This document shows positions 117-11,838 of a DNA stretch of 11,889 nt, one piece after another (the first letter of the stretch is position 1; every line of letters begins with the position of its first letter). This DNA comes from an uncultured Candidatus Saccharibacteria bacterium (GTDB lineage: Bacteria > Patescibacteriota > Minisyncoccia > Phycocordibacterales > CAZTTV01), in NCBI GenBank assembly GCA_964616385.1, contig CAZTTV010000017.1, forward strand, positions 1 through 11,889, written 5' to 3'. Below the pieces are notes generated by a model that worked only from the letters and a program-made list of their open reading frames with translations, searched no databases and was not told the DNA's origin. The translations under genes were made by a program, and so were the position numbers.

Positions 117-150
117 AATCGTACACCACACTCGTGATGTACGATTTTTA
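117..150. terminator. Bidirectional intrinsic terminator: 9-bp stem aatcgtaca/tgtacgatt with a T-run on both strands. It terminates the 148..639 (-) gene.
   Basis: Perfect 9-bp inverted repeat with 12-nt loop, then ttttt. It overlaps the stop codon of the minus-strand ORF. Confidence 0.55.
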
Positions 151-639
151 TGCCTTAATATCTATTCTATTCCCTAACAGTGAGCGAGACCTTTCTAATT
201 CTTTATGTAACTCATCAAATAAAGTATCCGTTGTTTTGTTTGGGTCATAACCCGAACTTGGAGCTACCCTTACAATACTTTGAGCAAGTTTTTTCTTCTC
301 TTGAGGAATTGGTGCTTCTGATACTGAGCTAACGGCATTTAACAATGCGGTAACTCCAACCTTTAATCCATTATTTGATGCAGCAGGACCGTATACCGAC
401 AACGAACCAATCCCGTTTGTAGACGAGCCTCCCATAAATCCATACAAAGAACTCAAGGATCCTTGTCCAATACTTCCGGTATTAGCGCTATCAATAATGG
501 AGATTAGACTCGCATTCATTTCCTGCCCTGTCTGCTGTATCGCTCCGCTACCAAGAGCTCCCATAGAAATCTTGAGTGATGATCCTAATAAACCAACAAC
601 TGGATTTGCGAAAACAGGAGAAATAGCTCCAATCTTCAT
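148..639 (-). CDS. Hypothetical Gly/Ser/Asn/Gln-rich low-complexity protein, 163 aa. Paralog family member P1 with a hydrophobic Gly-rich N-terminus and a VGLLGSSL motif.
   Basis: ATG at 639 is preceded by AGGAGA with a 5-nt spacer. It has its own terminator downstream. The N-terminal motif is shared with the 737..1081 and 1103..1360 products. Confidence 0.7.
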   Translation of the reverse strand: MKIGAISPVFANPVVGLLGSSLKISMGALGSGAIQQTGQEMNASLISIIDSANTGSIGQGSLSSLYGFMGGSSTNGIGSLSVYGPAASNNGLKVGVTALLNAVSSVSEAPIPQEKKKLAQSIVRVAPSSGYDPNKTTDTLFDELHKELERSRSLLGNRIDIKA

Positions 640-690
640 AATATTCTCCTAATGTTCTATCTAGCTACATAATAACATTTATTTTACAAT

Positions 691-730
691 TAAAAAACTC
701 CGCAGTGGTATATAAATACACACTGCAGAG
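691..730 (-). terminator. Intrinsic terminator after the 737..1081 gene: 10-bp stem (one mismatch) ctctgcagtg/cactgcggag, 13-nt loop, then TTTTTTA on the minus strand.
   Basis: Inverted repeat 698..707 / 721..730. The complement of 691..697 is ttttta. Confidence 0.6.
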
Positions 731-736
731 GTTTAC

Positions 737-1081
737 TTAGACATACATATTAACGGAGCCAGATCCAGAGCTTGAACTGTGCCCAGTATTTACTGGGTCT
801 CTCGCTCCAGAAGCACCGACGGAGCTTGGATAAACGGGGCCAAGGGAAGTATCCGAGCCAGGCCACTTGTCTTCCAGGGCCATCGCACGAATTAAATTAA
901 TATCTTTTTCGACACCTTTACTTTTAGGATCATCCTCTGCGCGCAATGAACCTGGTGACAGACTACTAGCCAATAACTCCCCCACTTGGGGCGCCTTAGA
1001 TCGCAGATCGGCAAAATCACCAAGATTAAGCCGCAAGCCACTAGCACTACTTACACCGCCTACTGGAGCAATACTTGACAT
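737..1081 (-). CDS. Hypothetical Gly/Ser-rich protein, 114 aa. Paralog family member P2 with a VGELLASSLSPGS motif and a C-terminal Ser-rich tract HSSSSGSGS.
   Basis: ATG at 1081 is preceded by GAGGAGA with a 6-nt spacer. It lies 21 nt downstream of the previous gene's stop, which implies an operon. Confidence 0.7.
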   Translation of the reverse strand: MSSIAPVGGVSSASGLRLNLGDFADLRSKAPQVGELLASSLSPGSLRAEDDPKSKGVEKDINLIRAMALEDKWPGSDTSLGPVYPSSVGASGARDPVNTGHSSSSGSGSVNMYV

Positions 1082-1102
1082 AGATTATCTCCTCAATTAA
1101 TG

Positions 1103-1360
1103 TTAAGCAGTACTATCTAATTTAGTACCTTTTCCAACTTCTTTTGCACCTGCGTCAAGAACATCGGACAGTTTACCTACGGACATTTTTTGAGCATCTC
1201 CAGAAGCAGTAGCCACTTCTTTTTGCTTGAATTCATCAACCGCATTTTTTACCGCATTTGCCTCGCCTGCAACCACTTGAAGCTCTTTGGGGCTCAAACT
1301 ACTCGCTTGAGTTGCACCAAACCCACCAATAGCACCTACGGACATACCTGAATCAGACAT
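1103..1360 (-). CDS. Hypothetical Gly/Ala/Lys-rich protein, 85 aa. Paralog family member P3 with N-terminus MSDSGMSVGAIGGFGATQASSLSPKEL.
   Basis: The ATG at 1360 is preceded by GGAAGGTGA about 6 nt upstream. It is chosen over the track start at 1411, which lacks an SD. The ASSLSP motif is shared with P2. Confidence 0.65.
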   Translation of the reverse strand: MSDSGMSVGAIGGFGATQASSLSPKELQVVAGEANAVKNAVDEFKQKEVATASGDAQKMSVGKLSDVLDAGAKEVGKGTKLDSTA

Positions 1361-1470
1361 GATATTCACCTTCCATTTATTTGTATAAAAACTAATTTGT
1401 GCACCATGCACGACAACCTATACTAGGTATAACATAAACTATTTAAAAATCAAGTCTTCCCGTAAATATT

Positions 1471-4902: not shown

Positions 4903-6666
4903 CTATTGTTTATTGGATGCTGGCTTTGCATCCATTTGCATCACAACAGGAATACTTCTTTTTATTGCTTGGGTTAGTGTTGAATTACCTAATATCGCTG
5001 CTGCACCTTCCAATGTCCCACCGCCCTGAACACCACTAACATTTACATGTGGCACTTTGACAATATCAGGATTTTCAGCAGCAACTTTTAATGCTTCTTT
5101 AAGCATTTGTAGTTGCAATACACGATCTTGACCCAATACATCTACTTGGGCCTTTTGACCTTTTGCAATTTCGATTAGCTTTAGCTTCTCACCCTCACCT
5201 TCAAGTTTCAATCGGTCCTTTTTAAATGAGGCTGCTTTTTTTTCAATCTCTGCTTGAACTAAGATTGGCTGTTTGTCAGCTGTTGCTCGTTCACGTTCAG
5301 ACTTGATTCGCTCTTTTTGAGCTTTCTGCTCCTCTATGTATGTTTCCCTTAGTTGACTCGCAAGCTGCTGACGCAAGGTTGCGACCAGTAATTCCGGTGG
5401 AATTGCTGGTTCACCCATCCTAGCCTCTTGTATCGTAACACCTGCTTTTGCTCCTTCCGGGGCAATAGCCTCTTCTACTTGCGCAACGATTTCGTCTCGC
5501 TTTTCTATAAAATCCAATACCTTGCGATCCGGATGACCACCTATAGTTCGAAGAATGTCCCGAATTGCTGGCGTTACGATTTTATCTTCAACATCTTGCA
5601 GTGTGCCAACAGAAGCAACAACTTTCGGCGCATCGTTTGGATGTACTTGAACTAATACACGCATATCAACTGGAATTATCCAACCTTCAACACGTACATT
5701 AATTGCATGATCCGCGGCGCTTTTCGGTTGAACAATTTCGTATGGCTCCTCTGTTTGCTCAATCTTACCATCGTCTCCAACAGTTAAATTGATTTTACGA
5801 CTACTATACCCACCACGATATGTCCATGTTTGAACACGTGTTGGAATAATTGTAGGAACATATGCACGGTCGTTCAGATAATATTTCCCTGGGGACAAAG
5901 GCTCACTCCAAACACCGATACATCCTCTTGGTACAAGTGGCGCAGACAAATCCGAACCGGTCTTACCACTTTCGGATGTCATGAGTTTGCTATTGTCTGG
6001 ACAGTCTTCATCTGTTTGAACATTAGAACGTATCACTGCGACATGCCCGGTTGGCACATTTAGAGCTTTGCCAAGTTTAACTTCAAATAAATATTGGTTG
6101 ATACGATATTTACCGGGACGCAATACATCAAGTTGAGGTCCTTTCTGTCCTTTACCATCACCAAGAAAATACTTGGCATCCAACATTTTATCAAAATTGC
6201 TTTCTCCCCAAGCATCAGCTATAAACTGATTATTGCGTAGAGGTGAGCCATCTTTGGTAACAAGAAAACCCCATTTCCCACTGGGGATGTCTATTACTGG
6301 CAACTCTTCAATTTCATACAAGACACGAATAAATGGTCTGAAATGAAAACCTGGTCCAAGGATTTCAGCTTGTGGTCCTTTTTGTCCATATTGCGCAATA
6401 ATCTTTCCAGGTGGTAGAGTATCTCCCAAATAAATACGCTTCAGATGACCGACTTTATCCTGACCGATAACCACAAATGATGTACTCGCGAATAAAAATA
6501 AAGCGACCAAACCCATGGTTCCAGCCGTAACATATCGAAGCCATTCTAGTTTTATCTCAACATTTTCTCCTCTGGTATCACTCCACACCTTTCTCGTCTC
6601 TGGAATAAACCTTGGTGCAAAAACTGCAGCCAAGATTGCAAGAATACCTAATATAATTTGAAACAT
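4903..6666 (-). CDS. SPFH/band-7 flotillin-like membrane protein (YqiK/FloT type), about 587 aa. It has an N-terminal double hydrophobic segment, an SPFH domain, and a C-terminal Glu/Ala/Lys-rich coiled-coil.
   Basis: The start is reassigned to the ATG at 6666 (MFQIILGILAILAAVF…), preceded by AAGGAAG. The track start at 6729 adds 21 residues with no RBS. The SPFH-like region and the EA-rich coiled-coil tail are typical of flotillins. Confidence 0.75.
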   Translation of the reverse strand: MFQIILGILAILAAVFAPRFIPETRKVWSDTRGENVEIKLEWLRYVTAGTMGLVALFLFASTSFVVIGQDKVGHLKRIYLGDTLPPGKIIAQYGQKGPQAEILGPGFHFRPFIRVLYEIEELPVIDIPSGKWGFLVTKDGSPLRNNQFIADAWGESNFDKMLDAKYFLGDGKGQKGPQLDVLRPGKYRINQYLFEVKLGKALNVPTGHVAVIRSNVQTDEDCPDNSKLMTSESGKTGSDLSAPLVPRGCIGVWSEPLSPGKYYLNDRAYVPTIIPTRVQTWTYRGGYSSRKINLTVGDDGKIEQTEEPYEIVQPKSAADHAINVRVEGWIIPVDMRVLVQVHPNDAPKVVASVGTLQDVEDKIVTPAIRDILRTIGGHPDRKVLDFIEKRDEIVAQVEEAIAPEGAKAGVTIQEARMGEPAIPPELLVATLRQQLASQLRETYIEEQKAQKERIKSERERATADKQPILVQAEIEKKAASFKKDRLKLEGEGEKLKLIEIAKGQKAQVDVLGQDRVLQLQMLKEALKVAAENPDIVKVPHVNVSGVQGGGTLEGAAAILGNSTLTQAIKRSIPVVMQMDAKPASNKQ

Positions 6667-6924
6667 TTTTCTTCCTTTCTTTAGTTTGTTTTGTGAAATC
6701 ACAAAATTGCGATATCCACGACATAACATTCAGTTTTCAACGAGCCTATGATAAAAACATGTTTAATTTAAACACATTAACCTATCATAGCAATAAACAC
6801 TAACAATTTTTATGTATCTTGTCAATAGTAGTAATGTAAACAATTAAAAACTTCAGTTATTGCACTTTTATATAAATTTTATATTTATAAACAAAAATAT
6901 TCAAAAATCTGATACAATTTAAAT

Positions 6925-7805: not shown

Positions 7806-7849
7806 AAAAAAAACACCATCGTTTCTAAAAAAGAAACGATGGTGTTTTT
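7806..7849. terminator. Bidirectional terminator between the convergent hydrolase and zinc-ribbon genes: aaaaaaa-acaccatcgtttct-aaaaa-agaaacgatggtgt-tttt.
   Basis: Perfect 14-bp stem with 5-nt loop, A-tract and T-tract. Confidence 0.8.
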
Positions 7850-7867
7850 ATATACTTATCACCTTAC

Positions 7868-8146
7868 CTATCTACTATTCCTGAAACAATCTATGCATTT
7901 TAAATTCCCTGTTTCTCTTGGCTCGAATGGTAGTTGTGATATTGTCGCACTACAGCTACCACATTTCCAATCTCCTTGAAACATTTTCTTTTGTGGGCTA
8001 TCTGACTTTTTTGATGCATGACAATCACGACAAAGTAACCCACTTGTATCTCTCGGTTCAAACGGTAATTCTGTTATATCTTTATTACAACCCGAACACT
8101 TCCAATTGCCTTGAAACATTTTTCTATCACTATTTTGTGAATCCAT
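7868..8146 (-). CDS. Small tandem C4 zinc-ribbon protein, 92 aa, with two copies of KMFQG(N/D)WKC(S/G)(G/S)C-x18-C-x-DC.
   Basis: Internal duplication at protein level and at DNA level (about 28-nt near-identical repeat starts). C-x2-C-x18-C-x2-C spacing resembles TraR/DksA-type C4 fingers, ending in CIDC. No SD, so the start (8146 vs 8119) is uncertain. Confidence 0.6.
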   Translation of the reverse strand: MDSQNSDRKMFQGNWKCSGCNKDITELPFEPRDTSGLLCRDCHASKKSDSPQKKMFQGDWKCGSCSATISQLPFEPRETGNLKCIDCFRNSR

Positions 8147-8220
8147 AAAATATTATTTATTATTTTTAATATATAATATTTTACTATAAAAACATTACAC
8201 AGACCAGAATATTGCTATAT

Positions 8221-8256
8221 TAAAAAACGAGTATTACCTAAAGTGGTAATACTCGT
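8221..8256 (-). terminator. Intrinsic terminator after leuB: acgagtattacc-taaagt-ggtaatactcgt, then TTTTTT on the minus strand.
   Basis: Perfect 12-bp stem. The complement of 8221..8226 is a T-tract. Confidence 0.7.
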
Positions 8257-8263
8257 CAATATT

Positions 8264-9430
8264 TTACAAATATGATATAACTTTATTCGCCATATCTTTT
8301 GTACCTAAAAGTTTTAAAGAATCATCTCCATCAGAAAATATATCTCCTGTACGATACCCTTCACGCAAAACACGCAAAACTGATTTCTCTATATCATCAG
8401 CACCTTCAATTGCACCGATGTGTCTGAGCATCATACCTGCTGTAAGAATTCTTCCAAGTGGATTTGCTATTCCCTGCCCAGCAATTGTTGGTGCAGTACC
8501 TGCTCCACTTTCAAACATAGCAGAACCCGTATCAGGATTTATAGCAGAACTACACATCATTCCCATACTTCCCAATGCGCTAGCTGCACCGTCTGACAAT
8601 ATATCGCCATGTTCATTACCACAAGCGATAACTCCATTAAGTTTTGCTGGTGTGAACAAAAGTGCATTAGCTGAATCTACAAGTTGATGTTTTAATTCAA
8701 CATCAGGAAATTCTTCCATCCCAATTTTTGTAGTAATCTTCCTCCAAAAATCATATCTTGCCATTACGTTAGCTTTATCGATTGAAATAAGCGGAAGATC
8801 CAACTTCTTGGCATAGCCAAAAGCAAAGCGTATATACTTTTCAATAGTCTCTTTTCTGTAATAAGCAACGTCAGTAACAATATATTCTTCTATAGAAACT
8901 TTATTTTTGAGCATTATACCGAGCATTGTTTTTGTATCATCATCGATAAAATCAACAAAGTCTGTATTCCCAAAATAGCTATCTTCCAGAAGAAGACGAA
9001 TCCAAATTTGTTTTATCCCTTTATCTGGTATTGTCCCAGGTTTAACATTTGCGAGACTATCAAGCACCTTGTAATAAGTCATTGGTCGAAAATTAAGCAA
9101 CAAACCCATAGTACTTCTAAGAGCAAGTAAGCATCTGGCTTCAGGCTTCATCTCTGGTTTTTCAATACCTATTGTATTGTCAAACTTAGGATCACCTACT
9201 CCACCAAAAAATATCGTACCGATTTCAACTGCTCTTTCAAAAGAACTCTTTGGAAGTGTGTCTCCAAATATTTCGTAAGCATTCCACCCCATAGGAGTAT
9301 CTTCAAAAACAATTTCCATACCATATTTCTCCGCAGCAATAATAGCAACGGAACAAGCAGCTTCCATCATTTCTGGACCAGAACCATCACCTTTTACTAA
9401 AGCAATGGTTTTCTTTCTATTAATTCCCAT
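8264..9430 (-). CDS. leuB: 3-isopropylmalate dehydrogenase family (isocitrate/isopropylmalate/homoisocitrate DH superfamily), 388 aa.
   Basis: Family motifs (…GNEHGDILSDGAASALGSMGM…). RBS GAAAGGA. It lies 15 nt downstream of the leuCD stop, so it is operonic. Confidence 0.75.
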   Translation of the reverse strand: MGINRKKTIALVKGDGSGPEMMEAACSVAIIAAEKYGMEIVFEDTPMGWNAYEIFGDTLPKSSFERAVEIGTIFFGGVGDPKFDNTIGIEKPEMKPEARCLLALRSTMGLLLNFRPMTYYKVLDSLANVKPGTIPDKGIKQIWIRLLLEDSYFGNTDFVDFIDDDTKTMLGIMLKNKVSIEEYIVTDVAYYRKETIEKYIRFAFGYAKKLDLPLISIDKANVMARYDFWRKITTKIGMEEFPDVELKHQLVDSANALLFTPAKLNGVIACGNEHGDILSDGAASALGSMGMMCSSAINPDTGSAMFESGAGTAPTIAGQGIANPLGRILTAGMMLRHIGAIEGADDIEKSVLRVLREGYRTGDIFSDGDDSLKLLGTKDMANKVISYL

Positions 9431-9445
9431 AAATATATCCTTTCT

Positions 9446-11389
9446 CTATAGAATTTTATGTTGTTTCTGTAATTCAGCTGCAATTTCAATCATTACATTA
9501 ACACTTCCATTATTTCTAATGAGCTCTTTTTGATAATCAGACAATCTAAACTCTATAAATATGTCTCCATTGCTGATTAGACCGTTCTCTATATCAATCG
9601 TCAGATTGCTGACACTTCCTAATTGCTCAATAGTGTTAGCTGGTAGTGTTATGCACAAAAGACCATTTGCGAACATATTATCTTCAAAAATACGTGCAAA
9701 ACTTGGTGCTATAATACATTTAGTACCAGCTCCTTCCAATGCCCATGGTGCATGCTCTCTTGATGACCCACAGCCAAAGTTCTCCCCAACTATAAGTATC
9801 TGAGATTCAAATAATCTCTGTCTCCCTTCTTTGTCAATGGAAGAATCTTCGAGACAATGTTCTCCAAATACTTTTTTATCAGTTTCTGTTAAATATTTTG
9901 CTGGTATTATCTGATCTGTATCAACATTGTCATCTTTCAAATGAAAAACTTTGCCAGAAAAATCTTTTTTACTTTCACTGCTAAACATTTTTAACAACTT
10001 AGAATAATCAGGGGTTGTAAACGGAACATCATTCCAATGAGTTGGTATGGATTTTGACACCTCACAACCAACCAAAGAACCTAGGCGCGCTCGCTTGCAC
10101 ATATCCTTATCTGGTTCTGTTATTACTCCAAAAATAGCAGACATAGCTGCTGTTGCAGGAGATACTAAATGCACAATTCCGCCCTTACCCATTCTTCCTG
10201 GGAAATTACGATTAGTTGTAGAAATACAAACCTCACCAGGGGCAAGAACACCACAACTCATACCAAGACAAGCACCACATGTAGGACCACTAACAAAACA
10301 TCCAGCTTTTACAAATGTCTGTATTAATCCTTCTGAAATAGCTTGCTCATATATATGTTGTGTGGCAGGAACTATAATACATCGAACAGAAGAATTTATT
10401 CTACCTCCCAAAATACGAATGACTTCTGCTGCTATTCTCAAATCTTCAATTCTTCCATTTGTGCAAGAACCAATATATATCTGATCAATTTTCTTGTCAG
10501 CAATACCAGATACATCAACAACACACTCGGGTGAATAATTGATAGTAGCTTTAGGACACATGTCTGACACATCAATTTCTATGACATCATTATATTCTGC
10601 ATTCAAATCACTATTAAAAGACAAAAATCTTTCAATATTAGAATCTACGTTTTCATGTCCAAGATATTTTATGATAGCTGGTTTTAAATAAGAAATCGTC
10701 TTTCCGTCAATTGGCATAATCCCTGATGTTGCTCCAGCTTCAACAACCATATTAGTGATTGTCATTCTACTTTCCATGGTCATTTCATTAATGACTGACC
10801 CACCAAATTCCAATACAGAGTTTGTCGCACCTTTTACACCAATTTTCCCAATAAGTGTCAAAATCAAATCTTTAGCAAATACATTTTCAGGCAACTCGCC
10901 TACAAAATTCACACGTATAACTTTTTGAGGTTGGCATATCCAAAGTCCTGTTATGATACCATTTTCTAGATCGGTAGAACCAACTCCTGCAGAAAAAGAA
11001 CCAAAGGCTCCATGTGTGCAAGTGTGGCTATCTCCCATAATTCCAACTTCTCCAGGGAGTATCCAACCCAATTCTGGTATGATCGCATGACACACGCCAT
11101 TTCGTCCTATATCTAGAAACTCTATTTTATGGCTATGGCTCCAATCTCTTATTATTTTACCCTGAACAGCAGATGCTGTATCTTTCGCAGGATTAACATG
11201 ATCTATCATTGCCTTAATCTTATTTGGATCAAAAACAACGTCACAATCGCGAGACTGTGCATCAATTATAGAAGGAGGAGTAGTAATCTCGTGACACCAC
11301 ACCCTATCAACTTTTAGCACCATTCTTCCGTCTTGTAGTGTTTTTACAACATGTTTAGAGATTATTTTCTCATACATATTTCTAGCCAT
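9446..11389 (-). CDS. leuCD: Fused 3-isopropylmalate dehydratase: large-subunit (LeuC, aconitase-family, small archaeal type) plus small-subunit (LeuD) in one polypeptide, about 647 aa.
   Basis: N-terminal part has aconitase-family Cys ligands (…GSCTNGRIEDL…, …CGACLGM…). C-terminal part matches LeuD (…NVDTDQIIPAKYL…GENFGCGSSREHAPWAL…SFARIFEDN…). Start is reassigned to the ATG at 11389 (MARNMYEKIISKH) behind AGGAGAAAAAAATG. The track's TTG start at 11500 is the -35 box. Confidence 0.8.
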   Translation of the reverse strand: MARNMYEKIISKHVVKTLQDGRMVLKVDRVWCHEITTPPSIIDAQSRDCDVVFDPNKIKAMIDHVNPAKDTASAVQGKIIRDWSHSHKIEFLDIGRNGVCHAIIPELGWILPGEVGIMGDSHTCTHGAFGSFSAGVGSTDLENGIITGLWICQPQKVIRVNFVGELPENVFAKDLILTLIGKIGVKGATNSVLEFGGSVINEMTMESRMTITNMVVEAGATSGIMPIDGKTISYLKPAIIKYLGHENVDSNIERFLSFNSDLNAEYNDVIEIDVSDMCPKATINYSPECVVDVSGIADKKIDQIYIGSCTNGRIEDLRIAAEVIRILGGRINSSVRCIIVPATQHIYEQAISEGLIQTFVKAGCFVSGPTCGACLGMSCGVLAPGEVCISTTNRNFPGRMGKGGIVHLVSPATAAMSAIFGVITEPDKDMCKRARLGSLVGCEVSKSIPTHWNDVPFTTPDYSKLLKMFSSESKKDFSGKVFHLKDDNVDTDQIIPAKYLTETDKKVFGEHCLEDSSIDKEGRQRLFESQILIVGENFGCGSSREHAPWALEGAGTKCIIAPSFARIFEDNMFANGLLCITLPANTIEQLGSVSNLTIDIENGLISNGDIFIEFRLSDYQKELIRNNGSVNVMIEIAAELQKQHKIL

Positions 11390-11471
11390 TTTTTTCTCCT
11401 TTTTTGTATATGATTCTAAAACTTTTATCAATGAACAAAAACAGCTACGCCGTTTAAGCTTTCTAATAGCC

Positions 11472-11500
11472 ACATTACATAAAATATACTGTTTGGTCAA
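11472..11500 (-). promoter_or_regulatory. Putative leuCD promoter: TTGACC, 17 nt, then TAATGT.
   Basis: Reverse complement of 11495..11500 is ttgacc, and of 11472..11477 is taatgt. The spacer is 17 nt. Confidence 0.45.
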
Positions 11501-11637: not shown

Positions 11638-11838
11638 ATGAAAGAAGGAACTATAGCTCGTCTTACAGACCGAGGATTTGGATTCATCTCAATTGAAGGT
11701 GAGGAGAAAGATTTATTCTTTCACTCAAATGAACTTCAAGGAGTACAGTTCAATGATCTTCGTGAAGGAGATAAAGTAACATTTGAAACAGCAGAAGGTC
11801 CAAAAGGACTTAACGCAGTAAATGTTAGCAAAGTGTAA
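11638..11838 (+). CDS. csp: Cold-shock protein (CspA-family, S1-like cold-shock domain), 66 aa. It is a variant lacking the canonical KWFN Trp.
   Basis: RNP1-like RGFGFI, RNP2-like LFFHSN, and C-terminus …GPKGLNAVNVSKV. Has a long leader. No SD. Confidence 0.85.
   Translation: MKEGTIARLTDRGFGFISIEGEEKDLFFHSNELQGVQFNDLREGDKVTFETAEGPKGLNAVNVSKV

Follow-up and report, generated by a model that had tools for sequence, protein, structure and literature searches.

The window analyzed here, 11,889 nucleotides from an uncultured Candidatus Saccharibacteria bacterium, carries a short gene on its minus strand at positions 7868 to 8146. According to the ORF list, this frame specifies a 92-aa product, MDSQNSDRKMFQGNWKCSGCNKDITELPFEPRDTSGLLCRDCHASKKSDSPQKKMFQGDWKCGSCSATISQLPFEPRETGNLKCIDCFRNSR, identical to the sequence quoted in the original prediction. 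The gene, referred to below as the zf gene, is convergent with an alpha/beta-hydrolase gene on the plus strand and is separated by a hairpin from an upstream Iso_dh gene. The window sequence was found in the NCBI metagenome assembly GCA_006243105.1. The features that matter to the argument are listed with the evidence on which each was drawn.

7809–7849, no strand assigned: hairpin with a perfect 18-bp stem between an A-run and a T-run (fold energy)
7868–8146, minus strand, stop included: coding sequence of the 92-aa protein, assigned to the tandem zf_Tbcl_2/CxxC-x17-CxxC family (ORF list and family models)
7883–7987, minus strand: finger unit 2, residues 54–88, KMFQGDWKC-GS-C-x18-C-ID-C-F (alignment and AlphaFold2)
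7988–8017, minus strand: linker, residues 44–53, ASKKSDSPQK (lower pLDDT and ortholog alignment)
8018–8122, minus strand: finger unit 1, residues 9–43, KMFQGNWKC-SG-C-x18-C-RD-C-H (alignment and AlphaFold2)
8147–8225, minus strand: AT-rich 79-nt spacer from the upstream terminator to the ATG (sequence)
8226–8257, minus strand: T-tailed hairpin resembling an intrinsic terminator, behind the Iso_dh gene (terminator scan and fold energy)

The gene, its flanks and its repeat units

The hairpin at 7809 to 7849 folds with -25.1 and -25.2 kcal/mol on the two strands (z of -7.1 and -10.1), no shuffled sequence folding as well, and is absent from the output of a simple terminator scan. It looks like a bidirectional intrinsic terminator common to the zf gene and the convergent alpha/beta-hydrolase gene. 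The terminator scan returned two sites against 0.1 expected; for the hairpin at 8226 to 8257 it gives 13 pairs, 5 of them G-C, followed by TTTTTAATATA. With a fold energy of -19.1 kcal/mol (z of -7.8), this second hairpin is terminator-like and would set the Iso_dh transcript apart from the zf gene. The zf gene looks monocistronic, and these two hairpins bear out the claim that it sits alone between two strong terminators. The spacer presumably holds its own promoter and 5' UTR, from which it would be transcribed outside any operon; about 34 nt ahead of the ATG align with the ortholog on the syntenic metagenome contig L007. A sigma-70 search of the spacer gave no convincing promoter, its promoter-like matches being not above shuffle expectation. 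The spacer also lacks a Shine-Dalgarno-like sequence, as do the leaders of several neighboring genes. Rfam and tRNA searches of the window returned no match.

The 92-aa product is dominated by two 35-aa units, each with one C-x2-C-x18-C-x2-C motif (residues 17–42 and 62–87), so that eight of its 92 residues are cysteines. Between units 9–43 and 54–88, 21 of 35 residues are identical, far above what 500 shuffles of the protein yield as best internal match (mean 6.3, maximum 10). The two-unit description in the original prediction is thus fully supported. Its further remark that about 28 nt are nearly identical at the unit starts has to be divided. The likeness itself is there, with 24 of 28 nt (86%) at the unit start, 67 of 105 nt over the whole unit, and a direct repeat of 78 nt with 71% identity and a spacing of 135 nt in the repeat search. 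As additional evidence of duplication, however, it carries no weight: the same codon is used at 11 of the 19 identical residues that have degenerate codons, where the codon preferences of the window's large genes would give 10.1. Amino acid conservation and codon bias suffice to account for the DNA-level repeat; the units resemble each other at the nucleotide level because their residues are conserved in an AT-rich genome (GC 0.36).

The age of the repeat can be read from other species. Among 39 orthologs picked with the x18 pattern, 76 of the 78 fingers have their closest counterpart in the corresponding finger of another species; the duplication therefore took place before the orthologs diverged and is ancient. 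Codon sharing at the level of codon bias and the separate grouping of the fingers together rule out a recent duplication or gene conversion as the source of the repeat. Each position has kept signatures of its own. Finger 1 ends in C-x-x-C-H, with His behind the last Cys in 38 of the 39 orthologs; finger 2 ends in C-x-x-C-F/Y and has N-L-K ahead of its third Cys. The linkers of the orthologs differ in both composition and length, from about 10 to more than 60 residues. Overall, the protein has 15 Lys and Arg against 12 Asp and Glu, for a net charge of about -1 if two [Zn(Cys)4]2- sites are included.

Family assignment and predicted fold

Two curated models recognize the protein, each over two stretches: Pfam PF23477 (zf_Tbcl_2, "Probable treble clef zinc finger") with 47.7 bits against a cut-off of 27, and NCBIfam TIGR04272 (CxxC-x17-CxxC domain) with 50.1 bits against 36. 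On these scores we assign it to the named family that the two models describe, and the orphan status implied at the outset does not hold. Some of the orthologs already bear the label CxxC-x17-CxxC domain-containing protein in their source annotations. Both units have a spacing of 18 residues between the Cys pairs instead of the exact 17 in the family name. Aligned with hhalign, the finger profile of the Candidate Phyla Radiation (CPR, Patescibacteria) matches the generic x17 profile with 98.3% probability (E 1.4e-14) and a one-residue insertion, hence x18 in the CPR finger and x17 in the generic one. Since the curated HMMs are still passed, the x18 spacing is best regarded as a subfamily variant that does not place the protein outside the family.

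The PFxP loop of the family is found in both units as LPFEP, followed by C-x-x-C-H in the first and C-x-x-C-F in the second, and in the generic profile as VPFKP followed by CRDCF. Because this PFxP core is common to the whole family, LPFxP is a family-wide signature and probably a structural one. This weakens the suggestion that LPFEPR marks a specific binding function, as the motif is more likely structural. The emphasis on the conserved tryptophan was sound: an alignment of 40 orthologs shows no variation in the eight Cys nor, in each unit, in G, W, I and L-P-F-x-P, so that both Trp and both LPFxP motifs are invariant. Beside the shared core, the G-x-W ahead of the first Cys is the only subfamily-specific element, and the x18 subfamily that carries it appears, from the homologs collected, to be specific to the CPR.

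AlphaFold2 models point to the same kind of fold in both units. The single-finger model of unit 1 (pLDDT 87.9) has strands at 3–8 and 15–19 and a helix at 32–38, with the cysteines at 9, 12, 31 and 34; the two-domain model (mean pLDDT 83) gives strands at 56–61 and 68–72 and a helix at 85–91 for unit 2. In both models the first CxxC is part of a beta-hairpin knuckle, and a helix begins with the second, so that each unit is confidently predicted to be a treble clef and not the zinc ribbon originally proposed. The prediction agrees with the name of the Pfam family. The only helices in the two-domain model span residues 40–49 and 85–91, and no coiled coil appears in the model of the 92-aa protein, as had been anticipated. 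In the linker region (residues 41–50) pLDDT falls to 74, and a pTM of 0.42 suggests that the fingers have no fixed orientation to each other. Searches of solved structures by fold and by sequence gave no close relative (Foldseek E > 2). The weak structural neighbors, PHD, RING, LIM, ZZ, ClpX-ZBD and CsfB, are all of treble-clef type, and the fold matches include neither GATA nor any other nucleic-acid-binding treble clef. A PDB profile search gave a marginal LIM match only, to the second finger of the FHL2 LIM domain (E 0.003).

Metal binding can be approached through relatives. [quoted passage not shown] Given these M. mazei members and the invariance of the cysteines, each unit of the CPR protein would be expected, by homology, to bind one Zn(II) through its four Cys. 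The M. mazei domain members also rank with the small proteins that proteomics detects most confidently (PMC12704099).

Distribution, conservation and genomic context

A word-indexed search gave 331 homologs, nearly all of them about 90 aa long with two fingers, and all carrying PF23477. Their named sources are Campbellbacteria, Parcubacteria and Pacebacteria, or the entries are simply labeled as CxxC-x17-CxxC domain-containing proteins. In a scan with one genome per species, 284 species-level genomes match, of which 80 loci were kept. These have Patescibacteria or CPR-type titles (Kaiser-, Campbell-, Wolfe-, Nomura-, Portnoy- and Falkowbacteria, Paceibacterota), with the exception of a few titled only "bacterium" and one 1.7-kb contig titled Izemoplasmatales. 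A single-finger profile, run exhaustively with HMMER, returned 401 clusters at E<=0.001. The generic x17 type is larger, with more than 3,000 members, mostly two-finger proteins of about 100 aa, whose hosts are mostly Thermoplasmatota, Heimdallarchaeota and Methanomicrobiales and include some CPR bacteria.

Comparison with the L007 ortholog, which has 88% protein identity, counts 28 synonymous against 11 nonsynonymous codon differences and therefore indicates purifying selection. The zf gene is a genuine, conserved one. Given how small CPR genomes are, a gene so strongly conserved in them, with a presumed promoter and a terminator of its own and present in hundreds of CPR species, is probably important to these bacteria.

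The neighborhood of the gene varies with lineage. Upstream ftsE-ftsX-pyrG is found in about 25 of 78 species loci and dnaX-His_Phos_1 in about 7 of 78; recJ and a copper oxidase are other contexts, unrelated genes are found in Andersenbacteria, and Thermoplasmatota show a succinyl-CoA ligase/GNAT neighborhood. Because contexts differ between lineages, a function based on the operon is rejected. As to the conserved context that the original prediction proposed to check, the neighbors vary by lineage, and proximity to two genes recurs in a minority of the 78 loci. In 10 of the 78 loci the zf gene has a cold-shock-domain (CSD) gene no more than 2.7 kb away, which in 6 of those 10 is directly adjacent and convergent, at 47 to 78 nt. 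BipA lies within 4.1 kb in 8 of the 78; a ninth match (L048), with 30% identity only, is probably a paralogous GTPase and was left out. The window and L007 have both genes no farther than 3.5 kb from the zf gene but differently arranged, with the CSD gene on its opposite side, and the BipA of the window is 91% identical to that of L007 and 74 to 76% identical to those of three further loci (L079, L083 and L092). A rough chance expectation for CSD proximity is about 1 of 78 loci, assuming a genome of about 1 Mb and one or two CSD genes; the CSD and BipA figures are raw counts, and the 78 loci are not phylogenetically independent. The proximity may reflect shared ancestry and concerns about 13% of species only. 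The arrangement is mostly convergent; therefore, the genes are not cotranscribed.

Fusions are rare. Three independent proteins of TIR or TIR-like type end in a CPR-type finger, suggesting that the finger serves as a generic sensor or adaptor. A fusion to an ECF sigma factor was discarded as a clue to transcription, being a singleton sequence on a 1.5-kb contig. A phage or defense-system origin was likewise set aside, with no PADLOC match and a PHROG match below threshold only.

Possible ligands and relation to known systems

That the protein is a tandem zinc finger of the zf_Tbcl_2/CxxC-x17-CxxC family is highly probable. It would be a small, stand-alone cytoplasmic protein with two treble-clef fingers on a flexible linker of variable length. 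Two independently folded fingers could grip a macromolecule at two points, and this bivalency, together with the choice of ligand, is the weakest step of the scheme. As to the ligand, we tentatively favor RNA or a ribonucleoprotein (RNP), with a possible RNA-chaperone or ribosome-associated role alongside CSD proteins and BipA. The overall confidence of roughly 0.55 is a compromise between the high probability of identity and architecture and the low one of an RNA/RNP ligand. The leaning to RNA comes from the linker composition of relatives and from the CSD/BipA proximity. RGG-like, Arg/Asp-rich composition is typical of RNA-binding proteins, and three multi-finger relatives (P0147, P0189 and P0195) have RGG- and RD-rich linkers, whereas the linker of the 92-aa protein is short and Lys/Ser-rich. 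In CPR proteins the basic residues are gathered in the tails and linkers that flank the fingers; the cores of the fingers themselves lean slightly to the acidic side, with near-invariant Glu around the LPF motif. With a near-neutral protein and acidic cores, protein binding fits at least as well as RNA binding. Further points against RNA or RNP are that pyrG, the commonest context, has no link to RNA, that the weak structural neighbors PHD, RING, LIM and ZZ are mostly protein-binding modules, with no nucleic-acid-binding treble clef among the matches, and that the finger is also fused to TIR or TIR-like proteins.

Nearly as likely as an RNA or RNP ligand, and thus also a possibility to be held lightly, is that the protein works as a protein-protein adaptor or regulator, its fingers binding a peptide or protein at two points in the manner of PHD, LIM, RING or ZZ domains or of the anti-sigma factor CsfB/Gin. 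Conceivable targets include dimeric enzymes, partners in defense systems and parts of the transcription machinery. Several strands converge on such a role: the protein-binding treble clefs, CsfB/Gin included, among the weak structural neighbors; the slightly acidic cores with their near-invariant Glu in a protein that is about neutral as a whole; the three C-terminal placements on TIR or TIR-like proteins; and a linker of variable length, as is typical of tethered binding modules. A role in transcription has also been raised for the M. mazei members, as speculation by the authors only (PMC12704099). An improbable alternative is a zinc or thiol-redox buffer or sensor, storing or releasing Zn(II), or sensing oxidants through a reversible disulfide with loss of zinc, as in switches of the Hsp33 or zinc-binding anti-sigma (ZAS) type. 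The high Cys content of a stand-alone gene with no fixed genomic partner would suit it, as would the dehydro-cysteine forms found in M. mazei homologs by top-down proteomics, earlier read as disulfides (PMC12704099). Nevertheless, conservation reaches well beyond the cysteines, to G, W, I, LPFxP, the position-specific residues and the fixed two-finger architecture, more than mere metal buffering would call for. A 92-residue chain with two zinc ions would also store little metal, and zinc-homeostasis neighbors are lacking in the loci that have the gene, a CsoR-like metal repressor with a P-type ATPase being found downstream in a single lineage only.

Two further alternatives have very little in their favor. 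A TraR/DksA-type C4 finger acting in the secondary channel of RNA polymerase, or a classical FmdB-like zinc ribbon, is very unlikely. The resemblance to TraR/DksA that had been proposed is confined to a four-Cys site of similar spacing near the C-terminus; in the 92-aa protein the finger is duplicated, belongs to another family whose curated model is passed, and comes without a coiled coil. Pfam matches to zf-dskA_traR, FmdB/Zn_ribbon_8 or GATA were not obtained even at E<=10, and other zinc-ribbon models score far below cut-off. The predicted position of the second CxxC on a helix N-terminus, together with the missing Zn_ribbon_8 match, led us to reject the classical ribbon. Remoter still is a haem-binding peptide resembling a c-type cytochrome, for which one could cite the CxxCH in finger 1 of 38 of 39 orthologs and weak subthreshold matches to DmsE decahaem, CctA and cytochrome c3/c7 Pfam models. 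All of these matches fall far below cut-off (19.6 bits against 192) and are driven by CxxC/CxxCH patterns, and F/Y replaces the His in finger 2 and in the generic family. The hydrophilic N-terminus, moreover, shows no sign of the signal peptide that periplasmic haem attachment requires, and the same cysteines form the zinc site in the zinc-binding homologs (PMC12704099). A match to ribosomal protein eL43/L37ae was dismissed on the same grounds of low score and pattern-driven similarity.

Our preferred reading of an RNA- or RNP-binding tandem finger might extend to the archaeal x17 proteins. That the CPR x18 and archaeal x17 proteins form one widespread and abundant prokaryotic class of tandem treble-clef RNA/RNP binders is a doubtful proposition at present. 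If true, it would give a family of several thousand small proteins its first function, and archaea would share with the ultra-small CPR bacteria a functional analog of the eukaryotic tandem zinc fingers that bind RNA or DNA. Curated models cover this family, which counts thousands of small archaeal and CPR proteins; no experiment or annotation assigns a function to any zf_Tbcl_2/CxxC-x17-CxxC member, and a literature search found no paper that names PF23477, zf_Tbcl_2 or TIGR04272 and none on zinc-finger small proteins of Patescibacteria. The original view of a conserved protein outside the well-characterized zinc-ribbon families thus stands in part, as the eight Cys are kept in 40 orthologs and the family is functionally uncharacterized, but the family already had a name. 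The window itself brings nothing qualitatively new to the zf_Tbcl_2 family. What the survey adds is modest, namely, the x18/G-x-W subfamily of the CPR, the ancient duplication with its position-specific residues, the weak genomic link to CSD and BipA genes, and the finger fusions to TIR proteins.

Several known zinc-finger systems look alike at first sight. In abstracts on GATA proteins, class IV fingers are given as C-x2-C-x17/18-C-x2-C, with a spacing range of x17-20. The 92-aa protein shares this Cys spacing (x18 in both units), the predicted treble clef and the tandem arrangement, but the GATA T-x-L-W-R-R core is missing from it. With no GATA HMM match at E<=10, no GATA structure among the fold matches and no similarity in core or structure, GATA membership was rejected. 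The LIM domain consists of two contiguous, interleaved fingers, C2HC and C4, in one domain of about 55 aa, a pattern that is not present here. LIM does occur among the recorded Pfam matches of some homologs. A relationship was rejected, as the marginal match at E 0.003 is lost with the generic family profile and the LIM Pfam model scores 12 bits against a cut-off of 22.9. The C(P)XCG microproteins of Haloferax volcanii (HVO_2753 and HVO_0758) are likewise very small stand-alone proteins with four-Cys zinc sites. HVO_2753 too has two finger-like motifs (PMC6562870), and the Haloferax proteins have been cited as zinc-binding small proteins comparable to those of M. mazei (PMC12704099). They have no sequence relationship to the CPR protein (a CPxCG-related protein reaches E 1.2 against the generic profile), which lacks the CPxCG motif and differs in spacing and in details of the predicted fold.

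The nearest comparison is with the archaeal members of the family itself. The 92-aa protein shares with the M. mazei A00184/A01980 proteins the signature CxxC ... PFxP ... CxxC-aromatic, and the stand-alone two-finger protein of about 100 aa is the commonest architecture in the generic x17 family too. Against that background, the CPR protein has its extra residue after the first CxxC, an acidic loop (ELPFEPR) where the generic type has VPFKP, and a nearly invariant His behind the last Cys of finger 1. Its distribution is in CPR bacteria, whereas that of the generic type is mainly archaeal.

Finger termini and extent of the repeat

Finger 1 of the zinc-finger protein ends in C-R-D-C-H (window 8018-8032, minus strand, residues 39-43), with a His that is retained in 38 of 39 orthologs; in the ortholog alignment, finger 2 carries Phe or Tyr at the matching position. 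The resulting resemblance to a CxxCH motif explains the weak, sub-threshold matches to multihaem cytochrome models. Each finger is preceded by a D-R-x-M-F/H element, which indicates that the true repeat unit spans about 40 aa and includes this conserved N-terminal lead-in. An N-terminus of the form MAF/Y-(D/N)-(D/N)-R, e.g., MAFDDRNRDR, recurs in some relatives from the Candidate Phyla Radiation (CPR) and elsewhere (P0120, P0055, P0124, and P0195), and the published cloning primers for Methanosarcina mazei A01980 and A00184 encode MAFNDRN... (PMC12704099).

Cold-shock and BipA genes near the zinc-finger gene

Two genes of the window are found near the zinc-finger gene in other species as well:

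11638-11838, plus strand: cold-shock domain (CSD) gene, 66 aa
3037-4821, plus strand: BipA/TypA gene

The CSD gene is a recurrent neighbor, located within 2.7 kb of the zinc-finger gene in 10 of the 78 species loci and directly adjacent and convergent to it in 6 of the 78. In loci L059, L077, L079, L083, L087, and L092, it lies 47-78 nt downstream on the opposite strand. BipA/TypA occurs within 4.1 kb of the zinc-finger gene in 8/78 species loci, a count that leaves out a ninth match, in L048, of only 30% identity. In the window and in the syntenic metagenome contig L007, both genes lie within about 3.5 kb of the zinc-finger gene, in a gene order that differs from that of the other loci. The intergenic space between the zinc-finger gene and the hydrolase gene contains a further element:

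7809-7849: perfect 18-bp hairpin, flanked symmetrically by an A-run and a T-run

This hairpin, which a simple terminator scan of the window did not list, could terminate both convergent transcripts, i.e., those of the hydrolase (plus strand) and the zinc-finger gene (minus strand).

Segments particular to the window

The interval from the zinc-finger gene to the CSD gene is occupied in the window by two metabolic genes, and two further segments stand out in base composition:

8264-11500, minus strand: Iso_dh gene (388 aa) and single-polypeptide aconitase-family gene
4903-6729, minus strand: SPFH/Band-7 gene, 608 aa, between BipA and an alpha/beta hydrolase gene
148-1411, minus strand: three small ORFs in a row (163, 114, and 102 aa)

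The aconitase-family product joins Aconitase and Aconitase_C domains in one polypeptide, as a LeuC/LeuD-like fusion. Its ORF, listed as 684 aa, begins at a TTG and carries a 37-residue Cys/Lys-rich N-terminal extension (window 11390-11500, minus strand); the Pfam match starts at residue 44, and the true start is probably the ATG at codon 38 (MARNMYEKI...), near 11389. Both metabolic genes are missing from L007, which has a 284-aa ORF of unknown function in their place, and, apart from loci that duplicate the window sequence itself, no other fetched locus has them. The pair resembles an insertion specific to this lineage.

The SPFH/Band-7 gene may be an acquired insertion. Its GC content is 0.42-0.44, versus 0.36 for the window; BipA and the hydrolase gene are directly adjacent in L007, without it; and among the other loci its start is found only in L093, which duplicates the window sequence. 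The small ORFs, which encode Gly-, Ser-, and Ala-rich products, coincide with the GC maximum of the window (0.44-0.45). The first two have Shine-Dalgarno-like sequences, which most other window genes lack. No Pfam match was found for the two ORFs tested and no PHROG match for any of the three.

Fusions of the finger to TIR and other proteins

A search with a single-finger profile retrieved three independent TIR or TIR-like proteins (P0232, P0235, and P0249) that bear the CPR-type finger at their C-terminus, with the signature G-x-W-x-C ... LPxEP ... CRDCH. A fourth fusion, P0254, combines the same C-terminal finger with a hydrophobic, apparently membrane-spanning segment at its N-terminus. P0235 matches the PADLOC TIR-TM model at 9e-59, and its finger occupies the place where the name of that model implies a transmembrane segment.
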